The position numbers and the translations under genes are program-made. The notes beneath the pieces are model-generated. The model was given only the letters and a program-made list of their open reading frames with translations. It was not told where the DNA came from and ran no database searches. Below, one piece after another: positions 8,068-50,446 of a DNA stretch of 64,000 bases. The stretch spans positions 32,001 to 96,000 of the forward strand of contig CAVQMM010000001.1 of assembly GCA_963713615.1 (NCBI GenBank), given 5' to 3'. The DNA comes from an uncultured Chlamydiae bacterium. Lineage in GTDB: Bacteria > Chlamydiota > Chlamydiia > Chlamydiales > JAJFMA01. The first letter of the stretch is position 1; each line of letters starts with the position of its first letter.

Positions 8068-8982
8068 ATGTCGTATAGGTATACCACAGTATATTGTCTC
8101 TTACGTCTTTTATTCATTGTTTCTATGTCATTTACATCACTAGACGCATCCCAGGTGGTCTTGGTAACCGGAGCATCACGAGGCATTGGCCTAGCTATTG
8201 CCAAGCAGCTTGCCGCAGCTGGCTACACCGTATATGCCGGGTATCGTGCGGTTTCCGCTATGGACGAGCTTTGTGACCTGCAGCAGAGATTTCCCGATCA
8301 TTTAAAGCTGGTAACGCTTGATGTAACCGACCAGAACACGACTGACCAGGCAATCGCCGAGATCATTGCCAACGATGGGCATATTGATGTGTTGGTCAAT
8401 AATGCCGGGATAGGAATAAGTGGATCTGTGGAAAACATCACCATTGCTGAAGGACAGGCGATCTTTGACGTCAATTTCTTTGGTGCTATTCGTGTTACTC
8501 AGGCCGTTTTACCCTATATGCGGAAACAGGAAGGTGGTCGCATTATCCAGATTAGTTCCCGTAGCGGCTTTCGCCCAGTTCCATGGCTAAGTGTGTATGC
8601 CGCCAGCAAGTTTGCTTTAGAAGGTTTATCTGAAACCATGGCTGCGACTTTAAAACCATGGAATATTCATGTTTCTGTCATAGAACCAGGCGGTGTGACC
8701 ACGGATCTTGAACATGAACTGACGTATGGTTCCCGACTTCTCGCATGTGAAGATCCTTATATAGAGATTTTTACTAGGGGTGGTTGGGCAAACACGTTCA
8801 ATAATGCCCAACCAGCAAGTGTCATTGCAGCAATCGTCCAAGAGGTCGTCGAAGCAGAGATGCCCCTCTTTCGCTATCAGACATCGCCTCAAATTCGAGA
8901 TCAGGCAGCTCAGCGATTAGTTGATGTAACCGGCAGATCATCGATCGAGGAGTGGCATCAGATACTATTTGGTAGCGATTGA
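8068..8982 (+). CDS. SDR family oxidoreductase with hydrophobic N-terminal leader (start uncertain)
   Basis: TGASRGIG, NNAG, YAASK, IEPG motifs. Confidence 0.88.
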   Translation: MSYRYTTVYCLLRLLFIVSMSFTSLDASQVVLVTGASRGIGLAIAKQLAAAGYTVYAGYRAVSAMDELCDLQQRFPDHLKLVTLDVTDQNTTDQAIAEIIANDGHIDVLVNNAGIGISGSVENITIAEGQAIFDVNFFGAIRVTQAVLPYMRKQEGGRIIQISSRSGFRPVPWLSVYAASKFALEGLSETMAATLKPWNIHVSVIEPGGVTTDLEHELTYGSRLLACEDPYIEIFTRGGWANTFNNAQPASVIAAIVQEVVEAEMPLFRYQTSPQIRDQAAQRLVDVTGRSSIEEWHQILFGSD

Positions 8983-8983
8983 A

Positions 8984-9041
8984 AAAAAAAGATGACCTCC
9001 TATACCACGCACGCGTGGTATAGTGAAGAGGTCATCTTTTT
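8984..9041. terminator. Bidirectional terminator containing a small palindromic insertion
   Basis: A-run-GATGACCTC...GAGGTCATC-T-run; paralogous copy at 9984-10019. Confidence 0.75.
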
Positions 9042-9059: not shown

Positions 9060-9803
9060 CTATGCGTATTGTTTAGCCTGTTGTTTTTTGAAGGCAAAGG
9101 CTCCGATGAGTAAGAAACTGCATAACATTATGTAAGTGCCTGGTTCAGGTGCGGTAACTCCTACGAGAGTTTGAACAACATGACCTGGAGAGTTACCGGA
9201 GTTGATCAGCAAGCGCCATTTTCCAAAGGAAGTATTGTATGTGTTGCTTGTCACGGCATTATTAGCAATCCCTAGAAAGTTAAGAGCGTCGGTTAGAGTC
9301 TGTCCAGTGACTCCTGGCGCTGAGAACACATTTGCTGCAGTTCCCAAAGTATTTGTGGGATGATTGGTGTTGGTCCAGTTATAGACAATACTCCAAACTG
9401 CCAACTGCAGCCCAGCATATTTGGCAGTGTCGTTGCCAAAAGAGGAAATATTTGCATTATTCAAGAGAGAGGTAGCTACTGATAAATTAAAAGGAGATGA
9501 GAGACCAAGGTATGCCGGTAGACCGGAAGTTTTGGGATTAACCATATTTACTGAATAGTTGCCAGGTACGAAGATTTCATCTCGCAAGTCTACGCAGAAG
9601 AAAAACTCAGTTGACCCTCCATTTAATGTTCCTGTGGTGGCTCCTGTGTAAGCGCTTTCCGAACTACCATTAAAGGTAATTGGTTCCGGAGTAATAAATG
9701 TGGAATTAATTCCATTCACATTCATTGGTACAGCAGCAAATGACGAAATTGTCATTAAAGCTGATACCGCTACGGTCCATATACTTATTTTATTTGTTTT
9801 CAT
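9060..9803 (-). CDS. PEP-CTERM surface protein with putative thioester domain, paralog 1
   Basis: Signal peptide; FCVD and LQLAVW motifs; C-terminal APEPGTY, TM helix and basic tail; AGGAGG RBS. Confidence 0.85.
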   Translation of the reverse strand: MKTNKISIWTVAVSALMTISSFAAVPMNVNGINSTFITPEPITFNGSSESAYTGATTGTLNGGSTEFFFCVDLRDEIFVPGNYSVNMVNPKTSGLPAYLGLSSPFNLSVATSLLNNANISSFGNDTAKYAGLQLAVWSIVYNWTNTNHPTNTLGTAANVFSAPGVTGQTLTDALNFLGIANNAVTSNTYNTSFGKWRLLINSGNSPGHVVQTLVGVTAPEPGTYIMLCSFLLIGAFAFKKQQAKQYA

Positions 9804-9874
9804 CAATGACCTCCTGTTCACTTCGACGATAGATACAGGAGCGCATGGATCGTCATTCCTATGCCATATCTATT

Positions 9875-9890
9875 AGCAAGTTCTATGCCA
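9875..9890 (-). promoter_or_regulatory. Sigma-54 (-24/-12) promoter
   Basis: Minus strand TGGCAT-AGAAC-TTGCT fits TGGCAC-N5-TTGCW; conserved upstream of paralog 2. Confidence 0.75.
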
Positions 9891-9939
9891 TATTTACCAT
9901 TAGCAAGTCCTATTTGCCTTTCAGACCCAAGTAACTCAA

Positions 9940-9984
9940 AAGGTTGGCTGGCGCAATTTCCTATGTGGCGCAGTCATTCCATGA
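9940..9984. repeat. Half copy of palindromic repeat family J
   Basis: Identical to left arm and loop of the palindrome at 49427-49505. Confidence 0.85.
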
Positions 9985-10039
9985 AAAAAAGATGACCTCC
10001 TGGTGAAGAGGTCATCTTTATAGAATCTAGTGCTTAAAG

Positions 10040-10786
10040 CTATGCGTATTGCTTAGCCTTTTGTCTTTTGAAAGCAAAGGCTCCGATGAGTAAGAAACTG
10101 CATAGCGTTGCGTAAGTGCCTGGTTCAGGTGCTGTAACCCCTACGAGAGTTTGAACAACATGACCTGGAGAATTGCCGGAGTTGATCAGTAAGCGCCATT
10201 TTCCAAAGGCAGTATTGTATGTGTTGTTTGTCACGAGACTATCAGCAATCCCTAAAAAGCTCAGAGCGTCGGTTAGAGTCTGTCCAGTGACCCCTGGCGC
10301 TGAGAACAAGTTTGCTGCAGTTCCCAAAGTATTTGTGGGATGATTGGTGCTGGTCCAGTTATAGACAATACTCCAAACTGCTAACTGCAGACCAGCATAT
10401 TTAGCAGTGTCGTTGCCAAAAGAGGGCACATTTGCATTATTCAAGAGAGAAGTAGCTACTGTTAGGTTAAAAGGCGATGAAAGACCAAGGAATGCTGGTA
10501 GACCGGAAGTTTTGGGATTAACCATATTTACTGAATAATTACCGGGCACGAAGATTTCATTTCGTAAGTCTACGCAGAAGAAAAATTCAGTTGACCCACC
10601 ATTTAATGTTCCTGTGGTGGCTCCCGAATAAGCGCTTTCCGAATTACCATTAAAGATAATTGGTTCCGGAGTAATAATCGTGGGATTAATTCCGTTCACA
10701 TTCATTGGTACAGAAGCAAATGACGAAATTGTCATTAATGCTGACACCGCTGCGGTGCATATACTTGTTTTATTCATTATTTTCAT
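10040..10786 (-). CDS. PEP-CTERM surface protein with putative thioester domain, paralog 2
   Basis: Highly similar to 9060-9803; same FCVD, LQLAVW and APEPGTY motifs. Confidence 0.85.
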   Translation of the reverse strand: MKIMNKTSICTAAVSALMTISSFASVPMNVNGINPTIITPEPIIFNGNSESAYSGATTGTLNGGSTEFFFCVDLRNEIFVPGNYSVNMVNPKTSGLPAFLGLSSPFNLTVATSLLNNANVPSFGNDTAKYAGLQLAVWSIVYNWTSTNHPTNTLGTAANLFSAPGVTGQTLTDALSFLGIADSLVTNNTYNTAFGKWRLLINSGNSPGHVVQTLVGVTAPEPGTYATLCSFLLIGAFAFKRQKAKQYA

Positions 10787-10872
10787 CAAGGACCTCCTGT
10801 TTATTTCGACGATTGATATATAGGAGAATCGATCGTCAAATTAAGAAATTGCTAAATATTATTGTTACTGTT

Positions 10873-10888
10873 AGCAATTCCTATGCCA
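10873..10888 (-). promoter_or_regulatory. Sigma-54 (-24/-12) promoter
   Basis: Minus strand TGGCAT-AGGAA-TTGCT. Confidence 0.75.
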
Positions 10889-10914: not shown

Positions 10915-12699
10915 TTAAAAACGAGGGGAGGTCAATATTAAATCAGAGAATCTCCATGCTTTCTGAAAGTCGTTATTTTCTTGGGCGTTCTTAGAAAATT
11001 TATTTTCCGAATGGAGTGTTTTAGTTAATCCGAATAATGACCATCCATTATTTGGATGTCGTTTAAGATCTTCTTCAAAAACCTTTAATGCCTCTGGGAA
11101 TTGGCCTGCTGTTAGAAGCTCTGTCGCCAGAGCTTGGCGCATGGGTAGATACCAAGGAAGCATTGAGGTATCTAGATTGTCTTCTATAGTTACAGCCATT
11201 TTAAGATTTTGGATAGCCTTGGCATGATTTCCCTGCGAGGCGGCGATCTGGGCTTCAAGGTCTAGTCCCATGAGGTCAAAAAGATGGGAGAGGTCAGCGG
11301 CCCTGGTCGGATCATCGACTTTTTGAGCGTCAAATAGTTGCTTGTTTTTTTTGAGTTCAACAAGACTTGCTTGGGCATTCTTGCTATGGCCGCTGCGAAT
11401 ATCCGCAAGACCTTGGCTATAGATCATTGCTCCTTTGGCAAAAAAAAGATCTGAAGGAGGGGGGGACGCTTTTATAACGTCTTCCCACTTTCCAAAGCGA
11501 GCCATTAGCAGATAGGGAACGCTGAAAAACACATCTTGCAGGTAAGGGTTCGAGGGCAGATCGCCCGAGATCAGCCTACCGATCAATTTGTTAGAAGTGG
11601 ACAAGGCATCGCTGGAACGTCCCTCCATGGTCAATGAGGCGAAGAGGTAGAAATAGTTGTGAAGATAGAATCCTGCAAATTCGGGGATTTTGAGAGCCCC
11701 CTCGCGGAAGAGTTTATCGTCTGCTGCGATGCCCCTCTGATTAGCTGCAGAGGCATCATGGTAGCGGCCAAGGTGCATGTAGATGTGTGCTGGCATGTGC
11801 TGGAGATGTCCGGAACCCGGCACTAATTTGCCTAACAGATCGGCTGACTGTAGAGCCTCGCCAGGCTTGCCAATGGCTTCCGCCACGTGGATATTTAGAT
11901 GATTGAGGCCAACATGGTTCGGATTTTTTTTCAACGCATCAGCCAGAATCTGCAGCAAGGTATTTTGAATAGCGATGTTTTCGTGCCGGTCCGAGCCAAG
12001 AGCCTCCATAGCACTCTTAGCGTATAATGCGGTGATGTCGGGGTCATTGGGGTATTTCTGATGGAGGACCTTCATCGTTGCAGCATATTTTTGAAGCGCA
12101 GGAGTTGGCTGGTTTTGGATAATCTGAAACTTCTCTAAAAGAGACTGAACGAGTGCTTTATCTTTTGCTGATGCTGCATTGGCAAGAACCTGTGCTCTAA
12201 GAGCTGCTGTAGATGCCTGCATAGCCCATGGGTCACCCGCACCTTGAGCACACTCCGATAGGGCTAGCGCCTCTCCCCAATAGCACAAGGCACACTGAGG
12301 ATCATATTGTTCAGCCTGTCGAAAAGACCTGGCGGCTTCAGCAAAATTGTAGCCATAGAATAGGATCAATCCCTGATCAAAGTAGCGCTGTGCTGTCGGA
12401 TCTGAAGTATGAATCTCCCTATGAAACCCCTCAAAGCCTGGATATAATGGAGGTGGTGTCGCAATATCTTTGCCTTCCAGCAAGCTAAACAAAGGGAGGA
12501 TGGTCAGCAGAAGCACATAAATAAAGAGGTAGCTAGTAACACGGATGCACACGGATCTAGGAGGATTTAGGAGGATAGGATTAGGAGTAGGAGTAACACG
12601 GGTGCATGCGGATTTGGGAGGATTAATTTTTCCAGATCCCTGATTCATATCCAATTCTAAATTCCTAATCCTCCTAAATCCTCCTAAATCCGTGTGCAT
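10915..12699 (-). CDS. Secreted TPR-repeat protein; 5' end overlaps a palindromic repeat, true start uncertain
   Basis: AQRYFDQGL..YGYN..EAARSF, HLQHMPAHIY, PNNGWSLFGL, typical of a conserved TPR family. Confidence 0.8.
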   Translation of the reverse strand: MHTDLGGFRRIRNLELDMNQGSGKINPPKSACTRVTPTPNPILLNPPRSVCIRVTSYLFIYVLLLTILPLFSLLEGKDIATPPPLYPGFEGFHREIHTSDPTAQRYFDQGLILFYGYNFAEAARSFRQAEQYDPQCALCYWGEALALSECAQGAGDPWAMQASTAALRAQVLANAASAKDKALVQSLLEKFQIIQNQPTPALQKYAATMKVLHQKYPNDPDITALYAKSAMEALGSDRHENIAIQNTLLQILADALKKNPNHVGLNHLNIHVAEAIGKPGEALQSADLLGKLVPGSGHLQHMPAHIYMHLGRYHDASAANQRGIAADDKLFREGALKIPEFAGFYLHNYFYLFASLTMEGRSSDALSTSNKLIGRLISGDLPSNPYLQDVFFSVPYLLMARFGKWEDVIKASPPPSDLFFAKGAMIYSQGLADIRSGHSKNAQASLVELKKNKQLFDAQKVDDPTRAADLSHLFDLMGLDLEAQIAASQGNHAKAIQNLKMAVTIEDNLDTSMLPWYLPMRQALATELLTAGQFPEALKVFEEDLKRHPNNGWSLFGLTKTLHSENKFSKNAQENNDFQKAWRFSDLILTSPRF

Positions 12700-12730
12700 C
12701 CGTGTTACTCCTAAATCCGTATTACTACTA
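12534..12730. repeat. Palindromic repeat family H (CACGGATGCACACGGAT type), copy 1
   Basis: GTAACACGGATGCACACGGATCTAGGAGGATTTAGGAGG and its reverse complement; second copy at 47738-47952. Confidence 0.85.
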
Positions 12731-15769: not shown

Positions 15770-16390
15770 CAGGGCGATCGCATCTAAATTTTTGACTAGG
15801 TATTATATCTCCTCGCCATCACACTATAGAGGAGATAACAATGTCAGCAGCAGAGCGTCTTAAGATTGTTTTTCAGCAAATTGAAGATCCCAGAATTGAT
15901 CGCACAAAAAAACATCCCTTAATGAGCATTATCTTCATCGCCATCTGTTCAGCTATGGCTGGTATTGATGAATGGGTGGGAATGCACGATTATTGTGAAG
16001 CTAATTTTGATCTTTTTGCAGCGGTTGTCCCTCTGCCTAATGGTGTACCATCCCATGAGAACCATCAAAGGCAAAACCACGGTTGAGCAACGCTTCTACA
16101 TTTCATCTCTCGAAGCAAATGCAGGACAGCTCGCTCAAGCAATCCGAGCGCACTGGGAAGTAGAAAATAAGCTCCATTGGGTTCTTGATCTCACGTTCAA
16201 TGAAGACGCTTCAAGGATATATAAGGACAATGGTCCCGAGATAATGACACAAGCACGAAAACTTGGATTAAACCTTATCAACCAGGCGCGAGGAAAGCTT
16301 AGTGTGCGAAGAATGCAGAACAAGATGAAAATGTCGGCTGAGTTCCTGTTTCGACTCGTTAGTCAAGGAAATTAAGATGCGATCGCCCTG
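15770..16390 (+). mobile_element. Internally deleted ISAs1-family element, 621 bp
   Basis: IRs CAGGGCGATCGCATCT / AGATGCGATCGCCCTG; 10-bp DR AAGAGATAAG at 15760-15769 and 16391-16400. Confidence 0.93.
15841..16375 (+). pseudogene. ISAs1 transposase remnant
   Basis: N-terminus (DPR...KHPL...GVPSH) joined out of frame near 16058 to C-terminus (RFYISSL, IRAHWEVENKLHWVLD); central region missing. Confidence 0.9.
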
Positions 16391-16469: not shown

Positions 16470-17471
16470 GTGACTATGAGTAATTTTCAGAGTTGGTTGT
16501 GCACTGCAGTAGCAGCTATTGCGTTTGTTGGATCTTCAGAGGCCTTCTCTGAAGAGGACTACGGCAATTATGATTGGAACAATGACAGTTGCGGTAACGG
16601 CTTCCAAGAAGATGCGTGCTGCAATGATCAGTGGGGATCGTTTGAATTAGGTGGCGAGGCATTCTTTGACTATGAGACCTTTAGAAGTCTTCCTGAAGGT
16701 AGCTGGGAAGGTAACACCGGCGCAGTGATCGGTGTGAATCTTGGCATGCCATTACCTTTTTCTTTTTGCGAATGCTGGGGAGTGCAGTTTGGCACCAGCT
16801 TCGGTGTGTATGATTGGGCAGGACGTGGCAATCCCTTCGGCCTCGTTAATACAGGTTCAACGCAGAATGAGACCTTTGTGACTCTTGGTATTTACAGGAA
16901 AGCTCCATGGTGCGATGCCTTTAATTATGGTTTTGTGTGGGACTGGCAGTTCAATAAAAATGCTGGCGTGTTTGCGTTAGATCCAAATTTATCTCAATTC
17001 CGTTTTCAGTTTGCTTATGAGCTGTCATGTGATGAGATAGGTCTTTGGGGGACAGTTCATACGCATTCGTCCACCAAGAACTTTGCTGGCGTCCCTGTTA
17101 AGTTTCGTGCGATCGACCAAATCAACTTCTTCTGGAGGCATGATTTTGGTTGCTACGCTCGTACCAATTTATGGGTTGGCGTACCTTATGGCAAAAGCCT
17201 GATGGTGAGTGGTCACAGACCCGGTCAGTATACTTTAGGGGCTAACGTTAAAGTTCCTCTGATCGACTGCTGGGCTATTGAAGGACGTGCCTTGTACATG
17301 GGCGCCAAACGGCAATCAGGTGGTTTTGCTTCCCGTAACTATGCGGCGAACGTTTGCGTTGGCTTGACCTATGCGTTTGGCAATGGCAGGGGAGATTGCT
17401 GTGATCTACAGCCTTACTTACCGATGGCTAACAACAGCAACTTCATCGTTGATACAAACCTAAGCGACTAG
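16470..17471 (+). CDS. Cys-rich putative outer-membrane beta-barrel protein (DUF6666-like), paralog 1
   Basis: Signal peptide, Cys/Asp-rich N-terminus, alternating aromatic beta strands, PYLPMANNSNFIVD tail. Confidence 0.65.
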   Translation: MTMSNFQSWLCTAVAAIAFVGSSEAFSEEDYGNYDWNNDSCGNGFQEDACCNDQWGSFELGGEAFFDYETFRSLPEGSWEGNTGAVIGVNLGMPLPFSFCECWGVQFGTSFGVYDWAGRGNPFGLVNTGSTQNETFVTLGIYRKAPWCDAFNYGFVWDWQFNKNAGVFALDPNLSQFRFQFAYELSCDEIGLWGTVHTHSSTKNFAGVPVKFRAIDQINFFWRHDFGCYARTNLWVGVPYGKSLMVSGHRPGQYTLGANVKVPLIDCWAIEGRALYMGAKRQSGGFASRNYAANVCVGLTYAFGNGRGDCCDLQPYLPMANNSNFIVDTNLSD

Positions 17472-17546
17472 GTTTGTAATTTCGACTTGCTAAAATTATA
17501 GGTTTAGGAGTAACTTGGCAGATCCCAAATAACTCTTTACACGGGT

Positions 17547-18578
17547 ATGACTATGAGTAATTTTCAGAGTTGGTTGTGCGCTGCAGTAGCAGCCATTGCG
17601 TTTGTTGGATCTTCAGAGGCTTTTTCTGAAGAAGACTATGGTAATTGGAACAATGACGGTTGCGGTAACGACATCCAGGAAGATGTGTGCTGTAACAATC
17701 AGTGGAACTTTGATTTTGGTGGCGAGGCCTTTCTTGACTATGAATTCTTCAGAAGCGTTCCAGAAGGTGACCATGAGGGTAACCTTGGTGCGGTGATTGG
17801 AGCAAACCTCGGTATGCCATTACCTTTCTCGTTTTGCGATTGCTGGGGTGTACAGCTTGGTGCCAGCTTCGGTGTCTATGACTGGGCAGGACGTGGCCCT
17901 GGTTTGCTGGTCGGTTCATCCAATCCGGGCGCAACGCAGAAAGAAACCTTTGTGACTCTTGGTATTTATAGAAAATCACCATGGAGTGACGACTTCAATT
18001 ATGGCTTTGCCTACGACTGGCAGTTTAATAAGCATGCGGGCTTGTATGGGTTAAATCCAAATTTATCTCAGTTCCGCTTTCAGTTTGCTTATGAAATGCC
18101 ATGTGATGAGCTAGGCCTCTGGGGGACGGTTCATACGCATTCTACCACAAAGAGCATTGCTGGTTTTGCAGTGAAGTTTCGTGCGGTCAACCAGATTAAT
18201 TTCTTCTGGAGACATGATTTTGGTTGCTGCGCTCGCACCAATTTCTGGGTTGGCGTACCTTATGGCAAGAGTCTGAGAGTCTCTGGTCACAGACCAGGTC
18301 AGTATACTTTAGGGGCCAACTTTAAAGTGCCTCTGGTCGATTGCTGGGCTGTTGAAGGACGTGCCCTATACATGGGTGCAAGACGTCAATCAGGTGGCTT
18401 GGGTGCAAACAACTATGCAGCCAACGTTTGCCTTGGTTTGACTTATGCATTCGGTAATGGAAGAGGAGACGGCTGCGATCTACAGCCTTACTTGCCCATG
18501 GGTAACAACAGTAACTTTATTGTTGATGCTAGCTCGAACAACTTCATTGTTGACCCCCGACCACTACCACCAAGCTAG
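17547..18578 (+). CDS. Cys-rich putative outer-membrane beta-barrel protein (DUF6666-like), paralog 2
   Basis: Colinear and highly similar to 16470-17471. Confidence 0.65.
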   Translation: MTMSNFQSWLCAAVAAIAFVGSSEAFSEEDYGNWNNDGCGNDIQEDVCCNNQWNFDFGGEAFLDYEFFRSVPEGDHEGNLGAVIGANLGMPLPFSFCDCWGVQLGASFGVYDWAGRGPGLLVGSSNPGATQKETFVTLGIYRKSPWSDDFNYGFAYDWQFNKHAGLYGLNPNLSQFRFQFAYEMPCDELGLWGTVHTHSTTKSIAGFAVKFRAVNQINFFWRHDFGCCARTNFWVGVPYGKSLRVSGHRPGQYTLGANFKVPLVDCWAVEGRALYMGARRQSGGLGANNYAANVCLGLTYAFGNGRGDGCDLQPYLPMGNNSNFIVDASSNNFIVDPRPLPPS

Positions 18579-18669: not shown

Positions 18670-19779
18670 TTACCCTACTGGCTCAAGAACCCTGGTTTCG
18701 GCTTGTGCAATTTTAGCCATAGGGGTCAGACTTGAGCCTGTCATCGCTGTGAGAACACGGCGTGGACCTTTAAAGGTGGCGCGTCCATGCATTGCCAATA
18801 CATTATCCAGTATTAGGACATCACCTTTTTTCCACGGGAAATAGATCGTATTAGCATCTAGGACATCCAGGATATGATAGAGATCAGCTTTGGGTATTTT
18901 GGTGCCATCAGCAAAGAAGATTTCGTGGAGCCTGGTGTGTTTTTGGCAATAAAGAGCCTTCAAGATGGCATGACGCCACCATCCTATCATCTTAGGGTTG
19001 AAATCGAAGAGATGAGCCTGGTTGAACCATACAAGTTCGTTTGTTTGTGGATGTGAGATCACCGCCGGGCGCGTTTGACTAATTTGTATCCATCCGTTTT
19101 GATTCCATTTAAACCCAAATTCATTTTCGCGGCATTTTTGCTCGACCTCTTGTTTGTCTTCGGTCTCAAACACATTCACCCAAGATTTGTGGCTCTTGAT
19201 GATTCTGTTGATCAACCCGCCGTTCTGGTGATAGCAGGAGACATATTTTAGCCCTTTATTGATAAAGCGAGCTTTCACATCCTCATCAATGGCCCTATAG
19301 ACTTTTCGTGCATCTGCGATAATTGTCTCTCCCCCCTCCGCCGGTGCGATGGTGCAGTGGAAGTAGATATGTGTGGGAAAATGCTTCACGAAGGAGAGTT
19401 CATTATGAAGCGCTAATTTTATTGAGGGTGGCGCCTCTGTCGACGTATATACGCCTTCACGAATCTTTGTGCGTGGGCTGTCTCCCCCTATGTAATTTAG
19501 GAAATCCCCTGTTTGCAGCGCTTCGATGACTGCAGCAAAGTCGTTCTCTCCGTTTATAGGAAAGTTGCGCAGTAGGATTCCTCCATATTTCAGAAGATTT
19601 TCCCTAAAGAAGGCATTATGAGTTCTGAGGAATTCCAGAAGTTCTGTGAACTGCACCCCGCCAGCCTGTGGTTCTATAACTAGGGGTAACTGTTCCGAAT
19701 TAACAAATTTTGAAGTAATCCTATGCATGCACATTCTCCAATATCGCGATGTTTTAGTGGGACAATACTCACCGACCAA
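18670..19779 (-). CDS. TauD/TfdA Fe(II)/2-oxoglutarate dioxygenase, SyrP-like (start may be 19734 or 19728)
   Basis: GILLRNF, VYTSTEAP, LHNELS (HxE), GGET, WFNQAHLF, DN..AMHGR. Confidence 0.9.
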   Translation of the reverse strand: MVGEYCPTKTSRYWRMCMHRITSKFVNSEQLPLVIEPQAGGVQFTELLEFLRTHNAFFRENLLKYGGILLRNFPINGENDFAAVIEALQTGDFLNYIGGDSPRTKIREGVYTSTEAPPSIKLALHNELSFVKHFPTHIYFHCTIAPAEGGETIIADARKVYRAIDEDVKARFINKGLKYVSCYHQNGGLINRIIKSHKSWVNVFETEDKQEVEQKCRENEFGFKWNQNGWIQISQTRPAVISHPQTNELVWFNQAHLFDFNPKMIGWWRHAILKALYCQKHTRLHEIFFADGTKIPKADLYHILDVLDANTIYFPWKKGDVLILDNVLAMHGRATFKGPRRVLTAMTGSSLTPMAKIAQAETRVLEPVG

Positions 19780-19783
19780 AGCT

Positions 19784-20806
19784 CTATAGGCTAACGTTTA
19801 GGGCTCGGCGTAATCCGAGCAGTTCTCGTATGCCTATGCGCGCTCTAGCAAATACCAAATAAGCCGGCTCTTCGTTGGGATGAAACTTCTCCCAAAACTT
19901 CCCAGGGCCACTTAGTCGAAGGCTCTTAGAGGCTATTTTAAAGATGCTACGGGCCAGCCAGGTCGATGTACGACTTAATCCGATGACCTCGCCCAGCTCA
20001 TCCTGTGGAACGAAGCTAAAGCTGACAGTTTGACATCCCTCGGCACGTAGGATGTCCAAAGCGGTGATCACAAGCAGCTCAGGAGTGCCTCCTGGGGAAT
20101 CCGGGGTGACCATCAGACGATTTAGAAGCCATCCTTGACGGGCTTCTAGCCTATTAAGCTGAAGTACACCGATGACCCTGTCACCATGTGTGGCATAGAA
20201 CCAGCGCTTTCCAGATCTATCTGAAAATAGGCGAATGCCGGCAATATAGACTTGGGGACCACGCCGTGCTTTCAGCCACGCATGGCCTACCAGGGTCATT
20301 GCATGCTCTAAGTCCGGGTCATAGCCCAAGTACTCCTGCGCTAATGTGCCCTCTTTATTTGCATGTCGAACTTTGCGGCGCACTAAGCTGGCGTTAACAC
20401 CTGTTTTAGCTCTAGGGTCATCCTGAGCATTCACTGTCAGTTGATTTCCATAACGCAAGATAGCGCCACAGCCGTTCTGAATTGCCCATGTAGCAAAGGG
20501 TTCTGAGGTTGAAAGATAGGCGAGGCGCCATTTTTGTTCGTCGCAATGCTGCTGAAAAGCACCTACCAGAGCGGGCATATCGGCTGGAGAACAGACTGGA
20601 TCACCAAAAACCACAGCACAACCAGATACGGCACGGTAGCCAATTAAGCCATCGATACTAGGGGCCATAAACGTTTGGCAAGCTGGGTCCAGCACAGCGG
20701 CAGAGCAGGCCCCGCCCCAACGACGTACTCTCTCGATAATTAACAGGCGTTCATCATCTAGTTTTTCGGCTAGAGGACTAGCGGCCATTGTCATTTGTGC
20801 TTCCAT
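19784..20806 (-). CDS. Stand-alone DUF2156 (MprF/LysX synthase-like) tRNA-dependent aminoacyl transferase, no membrane domain
   Basis: IGYR...AVVFGDPVCS, RRKVRHA, PGGTPELL, KFWEKFHP..EPAYL. Confidence 0.8.
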   Translation of the reverse strand: MEAQMTMAASPLAEKLDDERLLIIERVRRWGGACSAAVLDPACQTFMAPSIDGLIGYRAVSGCAVVFGDPVCSPADMPALVGAFQQHCDEQKWRLAYLSTSEPFATWAIQNGCGAILRYGNQLTVNAQDDPRAKTGVNASLVRRKVRHANKEGTLAQEYLGYDPDLEHAMTLVGHAWLKARRGPQVYIAGIRLFSDRSGKRWFYATHGDRVIGVLQLNRLEARQGWLLNRLMVTPDSPGGTPELLVITALDILRAEGCQTVSFSFVPQDELGEVIGLSRTSTWLARSIFKIASKSLRLSGPGKFWEKFHPNEEPAYLVFARARIGIRELLGLRRALNVSL

Positions 20807-21075
20807 TCGTTGATCCTGTGATCAAGGGTTATTGTCGAGGGTATACCCGCACTTAGTCACAACCGTGGTGTCAATTTCAATTGATAGAAATATTTGTACT
20901 TTGGGGCAAGAGAATATTCAGACTTTGACAGCGTTTTAGCGCGCCAAATCTTCACAAAATCCCTGTTACGTCACAATCTGAGATCTTGATACTGCTATTG
21001 ACTAGAATAGACGATGTGATTATATTTTCTTGTTACTAATGTTTTGCATGTTATCAATAAATTAAAGGTGAAGAT

Positions 21076-21468
21076 GTGGAAGCACTATTCAATTTATCAG
21101 AAACGTTAAGGCACTCCGGTTTATTACGAGAGGTTGTAGTAGCAGACGATCAAGACGTTTTTGAATGGTGTAAAGCCGAGACTAAGGTCTGGGCCTTTCG
21201 AATAGCAAAAATTTCAGCTGTGGCGCTTACCGTAACCCTCCTTATTGACAATTATGCCCCCGCAATGCCTCGGACATTAAGGTTCTTAGCTGTGGTTCTT
21301 AATCAAAACATGAGGGTTTTCGTCGTGGCCGAGATGTTGCATCTAATTGTTCTGCTCACTTCGGTTGTCAGTAGTGGGCGCCCACACATTCCTACTGGCT
21401 GGGGAATGACATTTATTTACTTGAGTGTGGTGCAGCTGCTAGGGACGGGTTTGGATTTCGGTCCATAG
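21076..21468 (+). CDS. Hypothetical membrane protein
   Basis: 130-aa ORF with 2-3 hydrophobic segments, AAGGTG RBS. Confidence 0.5.
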   Translation: MEALFNLSETLRHSGLLREVVVADDQDVFEWCKAETKVWAFRIAKISAVALTVTLLIDNYAPAMPRTLRFLAVVLNQNMRVFVVAEMLHLIVLLTSVVSSGRPHIPTGWGMTFIYLSVVQLLGTGLDFGP

Positions 21469-21528
21469 TGTCCATGCTGTCCATTAGAGATGATTGCAGA
21501 ATTCGTTCGAGATGTCAGATGATTGATA

Positions 21529-21765
21529 AAGCCCACACAATCGTGTCTCGGCGCGAAGCGCTTTGGAGTGCGTGTCGCTCGCGACCGCTTTGGATTTGGG
21601 CGAGCCTATTGAATCGCGCACCGTTCTTTGGAGGCTTAAACCCCCACAGTTACCCCTAGAGCGAAAGGTTACGTTTCTTGCAATGCCTAGTTCACCCAAA
21701 TCCAAAGCGGTCGCGAGCGACCGCACTCCAAAGCGCTTCGCGCCGAAATACGATTGTGAGGGCTT
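21529..21765. repeat. REP-like palindromic element family A, copy 1
   Basis: About 70-bp arms CACAATCG..TCGGCGCG.AGCGCTTTGGAGTGCG...CGCACTCCAAAGCGCT.CGCGCCGA..CGATTGTG. Confidence 0.9.
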
Positions 21766-21805
21766 GTTAGGTTTATGTGGCGGGCCATGGCCTGTTGCAA
21801 TTGCC

Positions 21806-24800
21806 TTAGTCAGGCGGATTGAGACGTCTTTGTCTTCTCAGGAGTAATTTTTCGCGAAGTTCTTCTAGGTAGAGATAGATGACTGGAGTCAGAAATAGGG
21901 TGATTACCTGCGATACCATCATGCCCCCAATGATCACATAGCCCAGTGGACGACGTGATTCGGCTCCGGCCCCAAAAGCTAAAGCTATGGGCACCGCCCC
22001 CATGATTGCGGCAATAGTGGTCATCATAATGGGACGGAAGCGGATGATGCAGGCGTCGTAGATGGACTTTTCAGCGCTTTCGCCTTTGCTTCGGACATTA
22101 TCAAGCGCGAAGTCAACCATCAATATGCCATTTTTCTTGACGATACCGATCAGCAAGATGATACCAAGATAAGCATAAAGCGATAGAGGCCGTCCGGTAA
22201 AGTAGAGAGTAAGTAAAGCCCCGACAATGGCAGGAGGAATAGTGGACAGGATGGTGATGGGATGGATGAAGCTCTCATAGAGAATGCCAAGGATAATGTA
22301 GATGCAGAAGAGAGTGATGATTAGGAGGAATCCCACACTTGTCATCGCTTCCTCAAAGGTTTCCGCAGCACCTTTGACGTCACCTGTTACCCGTGGACTG
22401 AAGGATTCGCTGGCCAGTTTACGCAAGCGACCAAGTCCATCGCTAAGGGGTACCCCTTGAGCAATACTGAAGGTGATGGTCACAGCGGGGAACTGCGCGA
22501 AGTGGTTGATGCTGGCGGGACCGACACCTTCAGAGATGTTTGCAATGGCCTCCAAAGGGACTAGCTGTCCAGTGAGACTAGATTTTAGGTAGATGTAGTT
22601 CAATGAAGAGGGGGTACGTTGCATATTTCGCTGTTGTTCAAGGATGAGGTCGTACTGGTCGATGGGGGTCTGAATGCGCGAAATCCTGTTTCCGGAGTAG
22701 GACAGAGATAGGCTTTGCTCCAGATCGCTCGCGTTGATTCCCGTTGAGGAGGCCAGGTCGCGTTGAATATCGACGTTGATTTGTGGCGTTTTGATTTCTA
22801 GATCTGTGGTTATGCCTACAAAGATCGGGTCGTCTCTCATTTTATCGATCAGCGCTTGTGCAGCCTTATACAATTCCTGGGCATCGAGGCTTTGCATCAA
22901 GTACTGGTATGCACCACGCACTTGGGATCCTACGTTCAGATCAATCAGAGGAACATTTTTGAAATAGACGTTAAGGCCTGCGATATTGCCCACTTTGGTC
23001 ATGTAGTCTGGGATTAGGTCATTGATGGCTTTACGTTGATCTCTGGGTTTGAGAGCTATAAAGACCAATCCTTGACGGTACTGTGGAGTAGCTGAGTTAG
23101 AGATTAGCGAGGCCACAGCCGGTTCTTTGCGGAGAATATTAACAACCTGATCTTGATAGGTGTGCATAAGATCCGATGAGGTGCCCTGCTCTGCTTCGGT
23201 GTATGCAATCAGGAACCCGATATCTTCGTCGGGAATGAAGTCCTGAGGTAGTGTTTTAAATAGATATGCACTTAATAGCACGCTGCCTACGCCTACCAAC
23301 AAGGCGAATATGCGGTGTTTTAGAATCCATATTAGCCCTCTTTTATAATGCTCAAGCATCCATTCATTAAGATGTCTAGAAAAACGCTCAACGCGTGTTT
23401 CTTCGTCATCATTGCGAGGAGGAATGAACCGGCTGCATAGCATTGGCGTTAGTGTCAGAGAGATAATGCCTGATGCCACGGTAACGATGGTGAGGGTAAT
23501 GGAAAACTCCTGAAACAGCTTACCAATCAGCCCAGCCATAAAAATCAACGGGATAAATACCGCTAATAGAGATAGCGTCATCGATACGATGGTAAACCCG
23601 ATCTGCTTGGACCCTTTGATTGAGGCCTCTAGAGGCGTTTCTCCGGTCTCTACACGCCTCACAATATTCTCTAGGACGACGATAGCATCATCGATGATGA
23701 AGCCGATGGCTAACGTTAGCGCAAGTAGTGAGAGATTGTCCAATGTGTAGCCGATCTGGTAGATCACTGCGAAGGTAGCAATGATAGACATCGGCATCAC
23801 CAGCGAGGGAATAATCGTTTCTTTGATTTTTCCGAGATAAACAAAAATCACGAGAACGACCAAAATAAAGGCCACCAGCAAGGTAAGCTGAACCTCTTTG
23901 ATAGAGTCTCGGATGGATTCTGACCTATCAAAAACTACAATAAGATCTAACGCACCAGGTAGTTGCGACTTAATAGAATCTAGCAAAGCATGCACGGCAT
24001 CGGCCACTTCAACGGCATTTGCACCTGGTTGGCCCTGTACAGCGAGGGTGACGGCGGGCTGACTAACATTAGCATTGATATATTTTCGATAGCTTCGGTC
24101 ATTTTGTAGGCTATCTAGGACTGTGGCAACATCCTCCAGCCTGACTGGAGCGCCGTTTTGATAGGCCATGATGATGGGGTTGTAGGCATCTGCATTTAAA
24201 ACAGCTCCATTGTCATAAATTGTGGAAGCTCCATGATCGCCGTCAAATTGACCTAAAGGCTGGTATTGATTGGAATTTGCCATGGCGTTGGAGATATCGG
24301 CGGAGGTGAGGCCTAGATAGGCCAAACGGCCAGGATCGACCTGTGCTCGTACGGCTGTTGGAGACCCATAGACAAAGACTTGGGCTACTCCTTCGATGAT
24401 GGATATACGTTGACCTACAAAGGTGTTGGCGTAGTCATATAGTTGTCCTAGCGTCATCGTCGGAGAGGTTACAGAAATATAAACAATCGGTGTTGAAGAG
24501 GGATTGACCTTCTTGTAGGTCGGTTGCTGAGGTAAATTCGGTGGTAATTGTGGCTGGGCAGCTACGATGGCGGCATCGACATCCACGGCGGCAAGGTCGA
24601 TGTTTCTATTGATCTCAAACTGAAGAATAACATTAGTTGATCCCAATGTATTTGAAGAAGTCACATAGCGGACGCCCGGAATAGTCATGAATTGCTTTTC
24701 AAGAGGCGTGGCAACAGTGTTAGCCATCGTTTGGGGGTTAGCGCCTGGAAAGGGGACTGTAACAGTGATCGTTGGGTAGTTGACATCTGGCAGGTTGGCG

Positions 24801-24934
24801 ACAGGGATTCGATGGTATGCCCAAGCACCGAGTACAAAAATGGCGACCATGACAAGCGTGGTCATTACAGGACGCAAGATAAAGGGGGCCGAAAGATTAA
24901 GCGAATGGTCCTCTTGCGGTTGCGGGGGGCTCAT
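21806..24934 (-). CDS. RND efflux permease, MdtB/MdtC-like
   Basis: FILRPV, VATPLE, GFIIDDAIVVLENI, GIVKKNGIL, RFRPIMMT. Confidence 0.95.
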   Translation of the reverse strand: MSPPQPQEDHSLNLSAPFILRPVMTTLVMVAIFVLGAWAYHRIPVANLPDVNYPTITVTVPFPGANPQTMANTVATPLEKQFMTIPGVRYVTSSNTLGSTNVILQFEINRNIDLAAVDVDAAIVAAQPQLPPNLPQQPTYKKVNPSSTPIVYISVTSPTMTLGQLYDYANTFVGQRISIIEGVAQVFVYGSPTAVRAQVDPGRLAYLGLTSADISNAMANSNQYQPLGQFDGDHGASTIYDNGAVLNADAYNPIIMAYQNGAPVRLEDVATVLDSLQNDRSYRKYINANVSQPAVTLAVQGQPGANAVEVADAVHALLDSIKSQLPGALDLIVVFDRSESIRDSIKEVQLTLLVAFILVVLVIFVYLGKIKETIIPSLVMPMSIIATFAVIYQIGYTLDNLSLLALTLAIGFIIDDAIVVLENIVRRVETGETPLEASIKGSKQIGFTIVSMTLSLLAVFIPLIFMAGLIGKLFQEFSITLTIVTVASGIISLTLTPMLCSRFIPPRNDDEETRVERFSRHLNEWMLEHYKRGLIWILKHRIFALLVGVGSVLLSAYLFKTLPQDFIPDEDIGFLIAYTEAEQGTSSDLMHTYQDQVVNILRKEPAVASLISNSATPQYRQGLVFIALKPRDQRKAINDLIPDYMTKVGNIAGLNVYFKNVPLIDLNVGSQVRGAYQYLMQSLDAQELYKAAQALIDKMRDDPIFVGITTDLEIKTPQINVDIQRDLASSTGINASDLEQSLSLSYSGNRISRIQTPIDQYDLILEQQRNMQRTPSSLNYIYLKSSLTGQLVPLEAIANISEGVGPASINHFAQFPAVTITFSIAQGVPLSDGLGRLRKLASESFSPRVTGDVKGAAETFEEAMTSVGFLLIITLFCIYIILGILYESFIHPITILSTIPPAIVGALLTLYFTGRPLSLYAYLGIILLIGIVKKNGILMVDFALDNVRSKGESAEKSIYDACIIRFRPIMMTTIAAIMGAVPIALAFGAGAESRRPLGYVIIGGMMVSQVITLFLTPVIYLYLEELREKLLLRRQRRLNPPD

Positions 24935-26250: not shown

Positions 26251-26564
26251 AGTGAAGGTTTTTTGTTTTATGAATGTGTATTATTGTCCATTACACCCTC
26301 ACAATCGTGCCTCGGCGCGTAGCGCTTTGGAGTGCGTGTCGCTCGCGACCGCTTTGGATTTGGGCGAGCCTATTGAATAGCGCACCGTCCTACGGAGGCT
26401 GCCCCCCCCCCACAGTTACCCCTAGAGAGAAGGGTTACGTTTCTTGCAATGCCAACTTCGCCCAAATCCAAAGCGGTCGCGAGGTAAGCGTCAATTGAAG
26501 CCATCTTTTTCGTAATTCCGCGAGGTTCTAAGTTTTCTCCATGACCCTAACCATGGAGATACTA

Positions 26565-27128
26565 ATGGATTTCAAAAGGAAGCGTTCTGAGTGGGCTCGA
26601 CGCATAGACCAATGGATGGCGAGCGGTCAGAGTGGCCGCAGGTGGTGCCTAGAGAACAATATAAGCTACCAGCAGCTCTTGTACTGGTACCAACGCTTTA
26701 AAGTTAGCCCGCCCGACCACATTTCCTCGACGGGTTGGATAGACATTACCCTGCCCGAGCTCAAGCTTTCGCTTGATCAGAAGAGCGTCTATCTAACCCT
26801 AAAGTCTGCGAGCAAAACTCTGAGGTCGTCATATCAGAAAAACAAGGGTGTCTTTCTCTATCAAGAGCCGATCGATATGCGAAAGGGATTTGAGTGCTTG
26901 AGCAATCTTGTTGACAGTTCGTTCTCGGGCGAATTTACCTGCGGGGCCTACTTCGTTTTTTTAAATCGTCGTAGAAATCTAGTGAAGGTCTTTTACTGGG
27001 ATGGTAATGGTCATGCCGTCTGGTACAAGCGACTTGAAAAAGGAAGTTTTCGCAATGGAAGCATTCCAGATTCCGCTATCGATCGTCGAGAATTTCTAAT
27101 GTTGTTGGAGAGTAGTCATCGAGCCTAA
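26565..27128 (+). CDS. tnpB: IS66 accessory protein, TnpA-TnpB fusion
   Basis: N-terminal W...SGQS...WC...YW helix-turn-helix followed in frame by DMRKGF, FVFLNRRR..K.FYWDGNG, KRLEKGSF. Confidence 0.88.
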   Translation: MDFKRKRSEWARRIDQWMASGQSGRRWCLENNISYQQLLYWYQRFKVSPPDHISSTGWIDITLPELKLSLDQKSVYLTLKSASKTLRSSYQKNKGVFLYQEPIDMRKGFECLSNLVDSSFSGEFTCGAYFVFLNRRRNLVKVFYWDGNGHAVWYKRLEKGSFRNGSIPDSAIDRREFLMLLESSHRA

Positions 27129-27204
27129 AATCCTAAAAACAATGTGTATTTTATTAGATAAAATACTTGATAATAGAGGGGGTCTGTGATATGATTTAGA
27201 GCAT

Positions 27205-28749
27205 ATGGAAACCTCAACACTATCACTAGAACATCTTCAATCGGAAATTTATTCCCTGCGAAATGAGAATAGCTTTCTCAAGGAGCAGCTTGAATGGTTT
27301 AGGCGTCAGATTTTTGGGAAACGTTCGGAAAAAGTAGTCGACGATGGCGGTCAACAACTCTACCTGGAAGGTTTCGAAAATCTTGGTTCCGAAGAGCAAA
27401 AAGAGACAATAAATGTGCCTGCTCATCGACGGGTTAAGCAGGGGCGCAATGGCAAAGATAAAATTACGCTTCCAGACAATATTCCCGTTCAACGCTGTAT
27501 TTTAGATTTGCCAGAGGATCAAAAAGTTTGCCCTACAACGGGTGAAGCCCTCGTCAAAATTGGCGAAGAAGTCACTCACAAAATAGCGCATACGCCAGGT
27601 AGCTACTACGTCAAGGAGCTAGTACGTCCCAAGTATGCATGTAGAGCACATAGTGAAGAGGGCGTTTTTATCGCAGATTTACCAGATAGCATTTTTCCTC
27701 GCTGTCAAGCCGATGAAAGTCTTTTAGCCAGTGTGATCGTGAAAAAATTCGCCGATCACCTTCCTTTATTTCGTCAATCGGAAATCTTAGCTCGCGAGGG
27801 CATTCTCATCAGCCGACAAATACTTTGCAAGTGGGTAATGCGCTGTGGATATGCCTTAAAGGCGCTATATGAAGAAATGATTGCTCGCGTGCTCAGCAGC
27901 AACAATGTTTTTGTGGACGAATCTCCTGTGGACATGCTTGTCCCTGGTAAGGGAAAGGTGCACCAGGCTTTTATGTGGGTGATCGTTGGAGGGCAGGAAA
28001 AAAATCCGCCTTATCGAGTCTATCATTTTCGCACGGACCGCTGCCACAAGCATGCTGTGGAAATACTAGCTGGATATAAAGGTGTTGTCCATTCGGATAA
28101 ATATGGAGCCTATGAAGCACTGGCTAATAAGAAGCAATTCACTTGGTGTCCATGCTGGAGTCACATTCGGCGCAAGTTTTTCGACGCTGTAGGTGGCGAT
28201 AAAAAATTTGTTAGCTGGGTACTGCGCAAGATAAAATATCTATTTATGTTAGAGAGAGTTGCTTGGGAACGTTCTCCAGAGGAACGTCTGCGGATAAGAC
28301 AAGAGAAAGAAGCTCCAATAATAGATGAGCTGACTGCACGCATCAAGGACCGGCTGGTTAATGGCAAGGCTCTTCCCAAATCGAATCTAAGGGAGGCTCT
28401 AGGCTATTATTGCAGCTTAATTCCCCATCTGAAAAACTACACCCAACATGCATTTGCGCGTCTCGACAACAATGTAGCGGAGCGAGCGATACGCCCTCTA
28501 GCTATTGGCCGCAAGAACTGGATGTTTATTGGAAGCGAGGAGGGTGGGGAAGCTTCCGCCGTACTGCTAAGCCTGGTACAGACCTGCCGCGCGATAGGAG
28601 TCAACCCCCACGAATACCTAGAGGATGTGATGAGGCGCCTGCCAGCCCATAATTCTCAAAAACTTCACGAGCTTCTGCCCGACGCTTGGGCTGCCGCCAG
28701 GCGACAAGCAAAGGCCTCATCCACCTCATCAGCCCCCACTGCCGAATAA
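27205..28749 (+). CDS. tnpC: IS66 transposase
   Basis: FGKRSEK, KFADHLPLFRQ, VDES, HSDKY, CWSHIRRKF, DNNVAERAIR. Confidence 0.96.
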   Translation: METSTLSLEHLQSEIYSLRNENSFLKEQLEWFRRQIFGKRSEKVVDDGGQQLYLEGFENLGSEEQKETINVPAHRRVKQGRNGKDKITLPDNIPVQRCILDLPEDQKVCPTTGEALVKIGEEVTHKIAHTPGSYYVKELVRPKYACRAHSEEGVFIADLPDSIFPRCQADESLLASVIVKKFADHLPLFRQSEILAREGILISRQILCKWVMRCGYALKALYEEMIARVLSSNNVFVDESPVDMLVPGKGKVHQAFMWVIVGGQEKNPPYRVYHFRTDRCHKHAVEILAGYKGVVHSDKYGAYEALANKKQFTWCPCWSHIRRKFFDAVGGDKKFVSWVLRKIKYLFMLERVAWERSPEERLRIRQEKEAPIIDELTARIKDRLVNGKALPKSNLREALGYYCSLIPHLKNYTQHAFARLDNNVAERAIRPLAIGRKNWMFIGSEEGGEASAVLLSLVQTCRAIGVNPHEYLEDVMRRLPAHNSQKLHELLPDAWAAARRQAKASSTSSAPTAE

Positions 28750-30237: not shown

Positions 30238-30260
30238 GAAAATATCCTCTTTGTGATGAA

Positions 30261-31499: not shown

Positions 31500-31719
31500 A
31501 TTTAATCTCCTTGTAATATTCTATGATTACAATTATTGCTGTACGTAATATTTAGAGAACGTCAACGATCTAGTTTTCTATGCTTTTCAGTATAATCAGT
31601 TTGCCTTTGAACTGAATTTCAGTCAACGGTAAAGAAGTTGTCATATAAAATATTTTACTAGTTTACACAAAAACACTGTGATAATACAATTGTATATAAA
31701 ACATAACTGGCTTATTATA

Positions 31720-50312: not shown

Positions 50313-50446
50313 ATTATAATCTATATTTTACGATGTGGTTAATTTTACTATTCGTTTTAAATAAGTATAAATGTAACATGTCTTATAATCCTTGTCAAGG
50401 AAGTACATGTCAGTATCAGGCAATCGCATTATATAAAACTATTGAG

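Follow-up and report, generated by a model that had tools for sequence, protein, structure and literature searches.

A tandem pair of predicted thioester-domain proteins with PEP-CTERM-like tails in a chlamydial genome

Two adjacent genes lie on the minus strand of a 64-kb stretch of contig CAVQMM010000001.1 from an uncultured Chlamydiae bacterium (this stretch, at its full length, is called the window below). Both appear to encode small exported proteins in which a predicted thioester domain (TED) is placed between a signal-like N-terminus and a PEP-CTERM-like tail (Table 1; residue numbers are those of copy A unless stated otherwise). The two products are 89% identical. Each opens with a basic start followed by a hydrophobic stretch (hydropathy peak 1.6-1.7), which has the look of a signal peptide, and each ends in APEP, a second hydrophobic stretch and basic residues. 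Three motifs are common to the bodies of both proteins, namely FFFCVD, LQLAVW, whose Gln stands 63 residues past the Cys, and VVQTLVG near the domain end. The Cys of FCVD (Cys70 in copy A, Cys71 in copy B) is the sole Cys between the signal region and the tail; elsewhere, copy A has Cys228 in its tail and copy B has Cys10 and Cys229. The bodies are rich in Asn (12.9%), Thr (12.4%) and Ser (9.8%). A first-pass annotation of this DNA had described tandem paralogs with a signal-like N-terminus, FFCVD, LQLAVW, an APEP-transmembrane-basic tail and a lone Cys in the mature domain; both open reading frames (ORFs) and the residue counts bear this out, and VQTLV, which that annotation did not list, is added here. 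Its description of the proteins as minimal and stalkless also holds, the PEP tail following directly on a domain of about 190 residues. The host genome (3.97 Mb, 99.1% complete) is treated as that of an environmental chlamydia, for which a life with protists is presumed from knowledge of the group; the chlamydial-type loci of close homologs agree with the earlier proposal of a chlamydia-like diderm.

Both copies appear to be maintained. Over 227 codons, synonymous divergence between them (dS) is 0.23 and nonsynonymous divergence (dN) 0.051, a ratio of 0.23, so that both are apparently kept by selection; judged from their sequences, the genes are two intact TED-like paralogs under purifying selection. 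Pseudogene status for one of the copies is ruled out by the open frames in both together with this ratio. A search of the genome with a domain-only hidden Markov model and with the sequences themselves gave no third copy. In the DNA alignment of A and B, the duplicated unit consists of the promoter-like site, the ribosome-binding site, the gene and the terminator-like hairpin. Given the hairpin that follows copy B, the copies would be separate transcription units; the related hairpin beyond copy A sits between that gene and a convergent dehydrogenase gene.

To place the domain, we built an AlphaFold2 model with 50 homolog rows (mean predicted local distance difference test score, pLDDT, 91.5; predicted template modelling score, pTM, 0.85); a fold of the mature domain from the single sequence had a pLDDT of 30.4 and is meaningless. 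The model is a beta-barrel joined to a three-helix bundle, as in known TEDs. Strands occupy residues 25-88, with Cys70 closing strand 65-70, and are followed by helices 104-116, 126-142 and 167-185, a 10-residue linker (186-195) and strands 196-201 and 213-216. All seven Foldseek matches at E<=0.001 were Cpa or SfbI TED chains. In a wider structural search of 48,161 chains, the top eight all contained a TED (Z 7.2-13.0) and the next chain scored 5.2; a second look at this search agreed with the ranking. The best score was that of BaTIE (Z 13.0, root-mean-square deviation 2.8, 147 residues aligned), followed by EfmTIE86 (11.4), SaTIE and Cpa (10.1 each), CpTIE (9.4), FNE (9.2), SfbI (8.2) and PnTIE (7.2). 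The structural comparison with TEDs proposed in the first-pass annotation thus placed TED chains alone at the top.

Published descriptions of TEDs, cited here and below from the parts of each paper available to us, give three motifs: [YFL]C-phi-zeta, which holds the Cys; phi-Q-zeta-phi-phi on the last strand, which holds the bond-forming Gln; and TQxx-phi-W on the central helix (PMC4450167, PMC6194298). Each of these has a single counterpart here, in FCVD, VQTLV and LQLAVW respectively. FCVD places its Cys at the end of strand 65-70, LQLAVW, with Leu in place of Thr, puts Gln133 and Trp137 on helix 126-142, and VQTLV supplies Gln211. Given the predicted fold, and with all three motifs falling in the order and on the secondary-structure elements expected, the domain is almost certainly of the TED type.

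Which Gln would form the bond is a separate matter. The first-pass annotation had proposed thioester-domain identity, which the predicted fold supports, and had implied a bond between the Cys and the Gln of the TQxAxW-like motif, which is probably not the right pairing. In solved TEDs, the Gln and Trp of TQxx-phi-W are not essential for the bond, and the Gln hydrogen-bonds the Cys backbone (PMC4450167, PMC6194298). By comparison with known TEDs, LQLAVW is therefore probably a helper motif, and the bond-forming residue is probably Gln211 of VQTLV. The register of Gln211 maps to the published bond Gln267 of CpTIE and Gln247 of PnTIE, and in SfbI to position 262, one off the published 261; this is a weak check, counted back from the last aligned structural pair on the assumption that the final eight residues are free of gaps. 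A bond of Cys70 with Gln133 draws some support from the conservation of Gln133 (93 of 96 aligned homologs), but the equivalent Gln is dispensable in known TEDs, Gln133 lies on a helix whereas the bond Gln comes from the last strand, and two of the 96 rows have Asn in this column; we consider this pairing highly improbable and rejected it. Since the bond Gln of known TEDs belongs to the last-strand motif, the Cys70-Gln133 distance would test the wrong pair.

Conservation points to the same residues. In a pooled alignment of 96 rows, in which gaps in fragments were counted as misses and account for most of them, Cys70 is kept in 93 rows, Trp137 in 95, Gln211 in 92 and Pro219 in 91; Gln168 is not conserved. 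Among the 91 rows that span all key columns, 90 have Cys70 and Gln211 together. Mean column identity is about 20% (in a 65-row subset), so retention of the motifs is not a matter of chance, an explanation that conservation and fold together rule out. By analogy with known TEDs, a Cys70-Gln211 thioester would very probably form on folding, with loss of ammonia. The domain could instead keep the fold and lack the reactive bond, acting as a non-covalent adhesin or structural protein with its Cys buried or in a disulfide. The 8-15% identity to solved TEDs fits such a protein, as does the richness of chlamydial infectious cells in disulfide cross-links (PMC7482065). Set against this are the joint retention of Cys and C-terminal Gln at such low column identity, the lone Cys kept by relatives outside chlamydiae, and the 17-Da loss seen in 12 of the 12 TEDs tested by Walden 2015 (PMC4450167), and we regard a domain of this kind as improbable.

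Among described TEDs, the class I domains are those of CpTIE (5a0g), SfbI (5a0l), PnTIE (5a0n), Cpa (4c0z, 2xi9) and FNE (5dcq), with Pfam family PF08341. The chlamydial domain resembles them in its predicted barrel and helix bundle (Z 7.2-10.3), in the order of its three motifs and in the short linker between its third helix and last hairpin (helix 3 to strand P), which has no beta-sandwich insert. It differs from them in its 8-15% identity, in a bond that is predicted only, in having a PEP-CTERM-like tail in place of LPXTG, and in its diderm host; unlike the Gram-positive TIE adhesins, it has no isopeptide, ester or fibronectin-binding stalk. Nor is an alpha-0 helix clear in the model, where strand D and helix 1 are joined by a connector of 15 residues with a helical turn of 3 residues in it. 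In this last respect the domain may be like the class II TEDs BaTIE (6fwv), EfmTIE86-TED (6fwy) and SaTIE-TED (6fx6), whose head domains include its best scores (Z 13.0, 11.4 and 10.1). Class II is defined by a beta-sandwich of about 75 residues between helix 3 and strand P (PMC6194298); the chlamydial domain, about 190 residues long, has the 10-residue linker there, so that class II is ruled out. The model thus suggests a domain that is class-I-like in lacking the beta-sandwich, yet finds its best scores among class II heads and shows an alpha-0 helix no more clearly than they do. Monzon and Bateman 2022 (PMC9210967) describe intermediate TED clusters, two of which (19 and 21) likewise have no such insertion.

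To define the family, we collected homologs by several routes. A word-indexed search returned 7 proteins (5 beyond the two copies) and an exhaustive search 49; when 7,998 candidates were scored with a profile, 49 had E<=1e-12. The Pfam TED model matched 16 of 50 homologs at E<=0.05, and three of 32 that were rescanned (P0044, P0045 and P0056) were above the cut-offs of both the TED and the PEP-CTERM models, the TED match beginning at the Cys motif in each. NCBIfam gave tail models only, and no TED-type family, for both proteins and the 50 homologs. The PEP motif lies a median of 10 residues after the Gln211 equivalent (range 5-21; 91 rows), so that the family as a whole is built without a stalk. 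A midpoint-rooted tree, from which no donor was inferred, was made with 65 rows of nearly full length, excluding fragments and 30-odd redundant rows; in it the 22 rows closest to the query, including all of those from chlamydial loci, form a clade with support of 99/90. By source names and Atlas, other members occur in Verrucomicrobiota, Armatimonadota, Pseudomonadota and Acidobacteriota, and look-alike clusters, found in Atlas with homolog P0007 as the query, are most frequent in these same four phyla. As far as sequence comparison goes, then, this TED-like family is not special to chlamydiae. A plasmid collection queried with two distant homologs gave no match.

Longer forms offer a further comparison. 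A search for fused proteins gave one match among 7,992 candidates scored, weak evidence that stalked forms are rare. P0100, a partial 901-aa protein from Pirellulales, has the Cys motif, a QLAIY helix motif and a candidate later Gln (hhalign probability 96.9), and its TED-like domain lies between SdrD-B/SpaA and Big_1 domains, from which stalked TED forms seem to exist in diderms; it may be a stalked thioester adhesin in a planctomycete. This protein bears on whether the chlamydial pair could be a periplasmic or shed decoy, its thioester trapping amine-bearing host antimicrobial peptides or enzymes much as bacterial alpha-2-macroglobulins act on proteases. A decoy of this sort appears very unlikely, as the predicted fold matches adhesin TEDs and not alpha-2-macroglobulin, with no bait region or cage, and the Ig-like repeats of the longer relative are typical of adhesins.

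Both tails combine a PEP motif, a transmembrane stretch and a basic cluster, with Pfam PEP-CTERM E-values of 0.0021 and 0.036; the close homologs P0006 and P0007 are above the PEP-CTERM cut-off. The first-pass annotation had asked for an exosortase in the genome, and there is one (G000:C1:2584699-2585433), which scores 90.1 bits against a cut-off of 25.7. Its CAG, NTFR and HQWG match the Cys-x-Gly, Asn-x-x-Arg and His-x-x-x-Gly motifs of the catalytic triad (PMC1569441). It is above the exosortase/archaeosortase signature cut-off, with no named subfamily above cut-off. Its neighbours include an EpsI-like gene and a PrsT-like tetratricopeptide repeat (TPR) gene, both below family cut-off, as well as, judged by eye, a second TPR gene and a sugar-transferase-like gene, and also a divergent rpoN. 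The genome has 12 PEP-CTERM-like ORFs by our reading of 24 pattern matches, while a PEP-CTERM family search gave 11 matches, six of them over the cut-off. Export by Sec followed by exosortase processing at the PEP motif is, from these sequence features, highly likely, and transfer to the outer face of the cell is favoured with less assurance.

Exosortases are uncommon in the phylum, a match being present in 18 of 300 genomes sampled (one further genome was unscored). The full TED gene was found in 5 of 400 Chlamydiota genomes. A search of relatives gave full-length matches in 5 of 61 genomes, the other 6 positives being tail-only, and supplied a sixth chlamydial genome with the full gene (61% complete). 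All six chlamydial genomes with a full-length gene have an exosortase; because these kin are not independent, no test statistic is attached to the co-occurrence. Among the papers listed by a literature search, none was on a chlamydial exosortase.

Much of this arrangement recalls the PEP-CTERM/exosortase system (Haft 2006; PF07589, TIGR02595, PF09721, TIGR04178): the signal region, the Ser/Thr/Asn-rich body low in Cys, the PEP-transmembrane-basic tail, genes that stand singly, each with a sigma-54 site 70-90 nt ahead of it, an exosortase that has the triad motifs, and EpsI-like and TPR neighbours. The differences are a chlamydial host ('Chlamyd' occurs 0 times in the text of PMC1569441 available to us), an exosortase that fits no named subfamily, a cargo that would be a TED and not an unknown domain, and an enhancer-binding protein, the only clear one in the genome, that by eye belongs to a chlamydial CtcB/CtcC-like pair. 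In the proteobacterial system, sigma-54 sites precede PEP-CTERM genes and are driven by PrsK/PrsR (PMC1569441).

A sigma-54-type (-24 GG/-12 GC) site precedes each TED gene. These are the only two matches to the pattern in the window, where 0.17 are expected, and two of 100 shuffles reached that number, with the pattern applied after the sites had been spotted by eye. Across the genome, a strict site lies within 300 nt upstream of 8 of 2,133 long ORFs, both TED genes included, and of 70 strict sites only 8 are both intergenic and directed towards a gene. Among seven orthologous loci, a strict site is present in two (L024 and L032) and a looser one in a third (L030). The genome also has rpoN and one clear enhancer-binding protein (one strong match of 8), which follows a histidine kinase and reads by eye as the chlamydial CtcB/CtcC pair. 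A sigma-70 scan gave 8 sites against 4.8 +/- 2.0 in shuffles and was uninformative.

In C. trachomatis, sigma-54 is reported to act late, on a 64-gene regulon that includes envelope genes (Soules 2020, PMC7482065), whereas chromatin immunoprecipitation (ChIP) gave two targets only, with extra targets predicted in Protochlamydia (Rizvi 2025, PMC12282069). The -24/-12 pattern, rpoN and the kinase-activator pair are all features of this late regulon; in contrast to the two ChIP targets, the TED genes would be lineage-specific additions, as predicted for Protochlamydia. From the promoter-like sites and the C. trachomatis data, expression under sigma-54 and a CtcC-like activator, late in the cycle, seems reasonably likely, and such late action would suggest loading of the TED proteins onto infectious cells. 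A direct repeat (TGCGCCA twice, window 9959-9976), which has no counterpart upstream of copy B, lies about 70-85 nt upstream of the copy A site, a position at which an activator might bind. Strict sigma-54-type sites also stand 55-62 nt ahead of two more genes (G000:C1 near 3425025 and 3260169, minus strand), which are candidates for the sigma-54 regulon of this genome.

Peat sequencing runs contain near-identical DNA (best share 0.41, mostly at least 99% identity). Contigs of five peat RNA runs match the genes, again mostly at 99% identity or above, and one spans most of copy A. These runs were selected using this DNA stretch as the query and three DNA runs share the bias of the RNA runs to copy B, so that the matches are no evidence of expression, strand or timing. 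In the intergenic part of the window at 12537-12718, several runs have contigs that match either strand and whose ends are loose, which suggests a dispersed inverted repeat.

Together, these observations appear to suggest the following route. Each paralog would be made from its own unit, with ribosome-binding site, terminator-like hairpin and sigma-54-like site, the genes being turned on late in the cycle by sigma-54 with a CtcC-like activator. The TED-fold domain would close the Cys70-Gln211 thioester spontaneously, losing ammonia; after Sec export, the exosortase would cut the PEP-CTERM-like tail and the protein would be placed in the cell envelope. A lysine or other amine of a partner would then open the thioester, leaving the partner joined to Gln211 by an amide bond. 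In a chlamydia, a partner outside the cell would most likely be the host-cell surface or extracellular matrix. Among characterised TEDs, fibrinogen is one target (PMC4450167), another TED aids mating-pair formation with the recipient cell in conjugation (PMC8092201), and the covalent link can be pH-reversible (PMC13685950). We give this reading as a whole, from export through thioester formation and exosortase cleavage to display on the envelope and the covalent trapping of an amine from outside, a probability of roughly 0.6.

Several observations weigh against it. Identity to solved TEDs is low, a profile search of PDB sequences with the family alignment gave no match at E<=10, and the Pfam TED cut-off (PF08341, 22 bits) is missed, with 12.7 bits for copy A and no match for copy B. 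Gln211 stands just before, and not within, the last strand assigned by DSSP. The tails fall just below the Pfam PEP-CTERM cut-off (18.5 and 14.6 bits vs 20.7), and TIGR02595 gives 14.3 vs a cut-off of 16 for copy A and no match for copy B. Four of the seven orthologous loci (L025, L026, L029 and L031) have no sigma-54 site under either pattern, though at L031 the ortholog follows another PEP-like gene and the start coordinate used is approximate; the other ten of the 12 PEP-CTERM-like genes of the genome have none either, and the pattern itself, as stated above, was chosen with the two sites in view. Roles in periplasmic steps have been linked to some PEP-CTERM proteins (PMC12188702). Finally, Gln211 is just 8 residues from the PEP motif, and with no stalk and the Gln so near the anchor the reactive site may fail to reach a host. 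The relatives belong to largely free-living phyla, so that a protist-host target is not the general role of the family.

The last two points fit a protein whose thioester does form and targets the cell's own envelope or matrix, forming cross-links with amines on adjacent envelope proteins, on peptidoglycan or on extracellular polymer, which would stiffen the envelope or hold the matrix on the cell. Other findings lean the same way: PEP-CTERM proteins are linked to the retention of polysaccharide on the cell surface (PMC12188702), the exosortase locus has the sugar-transferase-like gene, chlamydial sigma-54 is linked to envelope remodelling (PMC7482065), and the paralogs, with a dN/dS of 0.23, bear no sign of diversifying selection. 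However, the characterised TEDs act on outside partners, fibrinogen and the recipient cell among them, and a gene present in just 5 of 400 genomes of the phylum is no core envelope part; self-cross-linking is in our estimate rather unlikely. Within the preferred reading of outside capture, a more specific version, in which environmental chlamydiae arm their infectious cells by late sigma-54/CtcC expression, exosortase sorting and a Cys-Gln harpoon onto an amine of the protist host, is offered as a tentative possibility.

Table 1. Features of the two genes in the window, followed by related loci elsewhere in the genome
Feature	Coordinates	Strand	Remarks
Copy A gene (P0001, 247 aa)	9060-9803	minus	ORF with AGGAGG ribosome-binding site
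Copy A parts			signal-like region ~1-23; TED-fold domain ~24-217; PEP-CTERM-like tail 218-247 (residues)
Copy B gene (P0003, 248 aa)	10040-10786	minus	architecture as copy A
Cys70 of copy A (FCVD)	9594-9596	minus	predicted thioester Cys, end of strand 65-70
Gln133-Trp137 of copy A (LQLAVW)	9393-9407	minus	TQxx-phi-W-like motif on helix 126-142
Gln211 of copy A (VQTLV)	9171-9173	minus	predicted bond-forming Gln before last strand
Cys71 of copy B (FCVD)	10574-10576	minus	
Gln212 of copy B (VQTLV)	10151-10153	minus	predicted bond-forming Gln
AGGAGG ribosome-binding site, copy A	9810-9815	minus	
AGGAGG ribosome-binding site, copy B	10793-10798	minus	
Intrinsic-terminator-like hairpin 3' of copy B	9988-10019	minus	14 pairs, T-rich tail
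Related hairpin 3' of copy A	8982-9041	minus	20-nt loop insert; by eye, not scanner-called
Sigma-54 (-24/-12) promoter-like site, copy A	9876-9890	minus	starts 87 nt before ATG
Sigma-54 (-24/-12) promoter-like site, copy B	10874-10888	minus	starts 102 nt before ATG
Exosortase locus	L041:2045-14535		rpoN divergent from gene run
Ten other PEP-CTERM-like ORFs, first part	G000:C1 101354-102013, 655297-655971, 1165507-1166172, 1343042-1343986		
Ten other PEP-CTERM-like ORFs, rest	G000:C1 3270797-3271741, 3328003-3330510, 3670763-3670996, 3796661-3797731		

The gene run of the exosortase locus comprises a response-regulator/phosphatase/anti-sigma fusion, the sugar-transferase-like gene, two large TPR genes, the exosortase, a small membrane protein and the EpsI-like gene. 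Near it, at L041:17607-19989, are ORFs that we take to resemble cas1, cas4 and cas7 of a type I-C CRISPR system. By eye, the other PEP-CTERM-like ORFs include three in tandem, a protein rich in Gly, another whose HExxHxxGxxH motif is metalloprotease-like, and a short fragment.

In the window itself, a TPR gene lies upstream of copy B (10915-12699), and by eye a look-alike adjoins the ortholog in L029 and another is near the ortholog in L025. Dioxygenase-like, acyltransferase-like and RND genes are found 8-14 kb upstream (18670-24934), with look-alikes, again by eye, directly upstream of the L024 ortholog, so that synteny is partial. Two tandem paralogs at 16470-18578 have signal-like N-termini, Cys-rich acidic leaders and the look of outer-membrane barrels, and the first matches DUF6666 at 75.5 bits. 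Eukaryote-like ORFs at 28951-31499, 49530-51560 and 55762-57021, two of them BTB/POZ-like and three with leucine-rich-repeat-like stretches, appear by eye to be typical of host-directed proteins of environmental chlamydiae. A 3,279-aa ORF (31678-41517) has a C-terminal half reminiscent of giant proteins of the DUF3638/DUF3645 type. An IS66-like element and ISAs1-like transposase fragments were recognised by eye at 26541-28749 and 15841-16375.

The TED and the PEP-CTERM sorting system are each known already, and some homologs pass both Pfam models. Literature to October 2026 (including the available part of PMC13685950) describes thioester adhesin domains as Gram-positive. We found no published TED on a PEP-CTERM protein or in chlamydiae, a result judged mostly by titles and abstract openings, with most subscription papers outside reach; the part of PMC12617251 available to us describes no PEP-CTERM TED. 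The chlamydial setting and the sigma-54-like promoters are the specific additions made here to the theme of a TED on an exosortase anchor.

With a compact TED on an exosortase tail, the chemistry of covalent adhesion would reach into several phyla of double-membraned bacteria, and a widespread family of PEP-CTERM cargo, most members of which are unnamed in databases, would gain a specific reaction. A single-Cys TED of about 190 residues could also serve as a minimal scaffold for protein ligation. To our knowledge, little is known of how environmental chlamydiae attach to their hosts, and through the sigma-54-like promoters the pair may be tied to the developmental cycle of chlamydiae. If the proposed function is correct, it would mean covalent host attachment outside Gram-positive bacteria, a role for an exosortase in Chlamydiota, and a chemical function for a family of PEP-CTERM cargo proteins.

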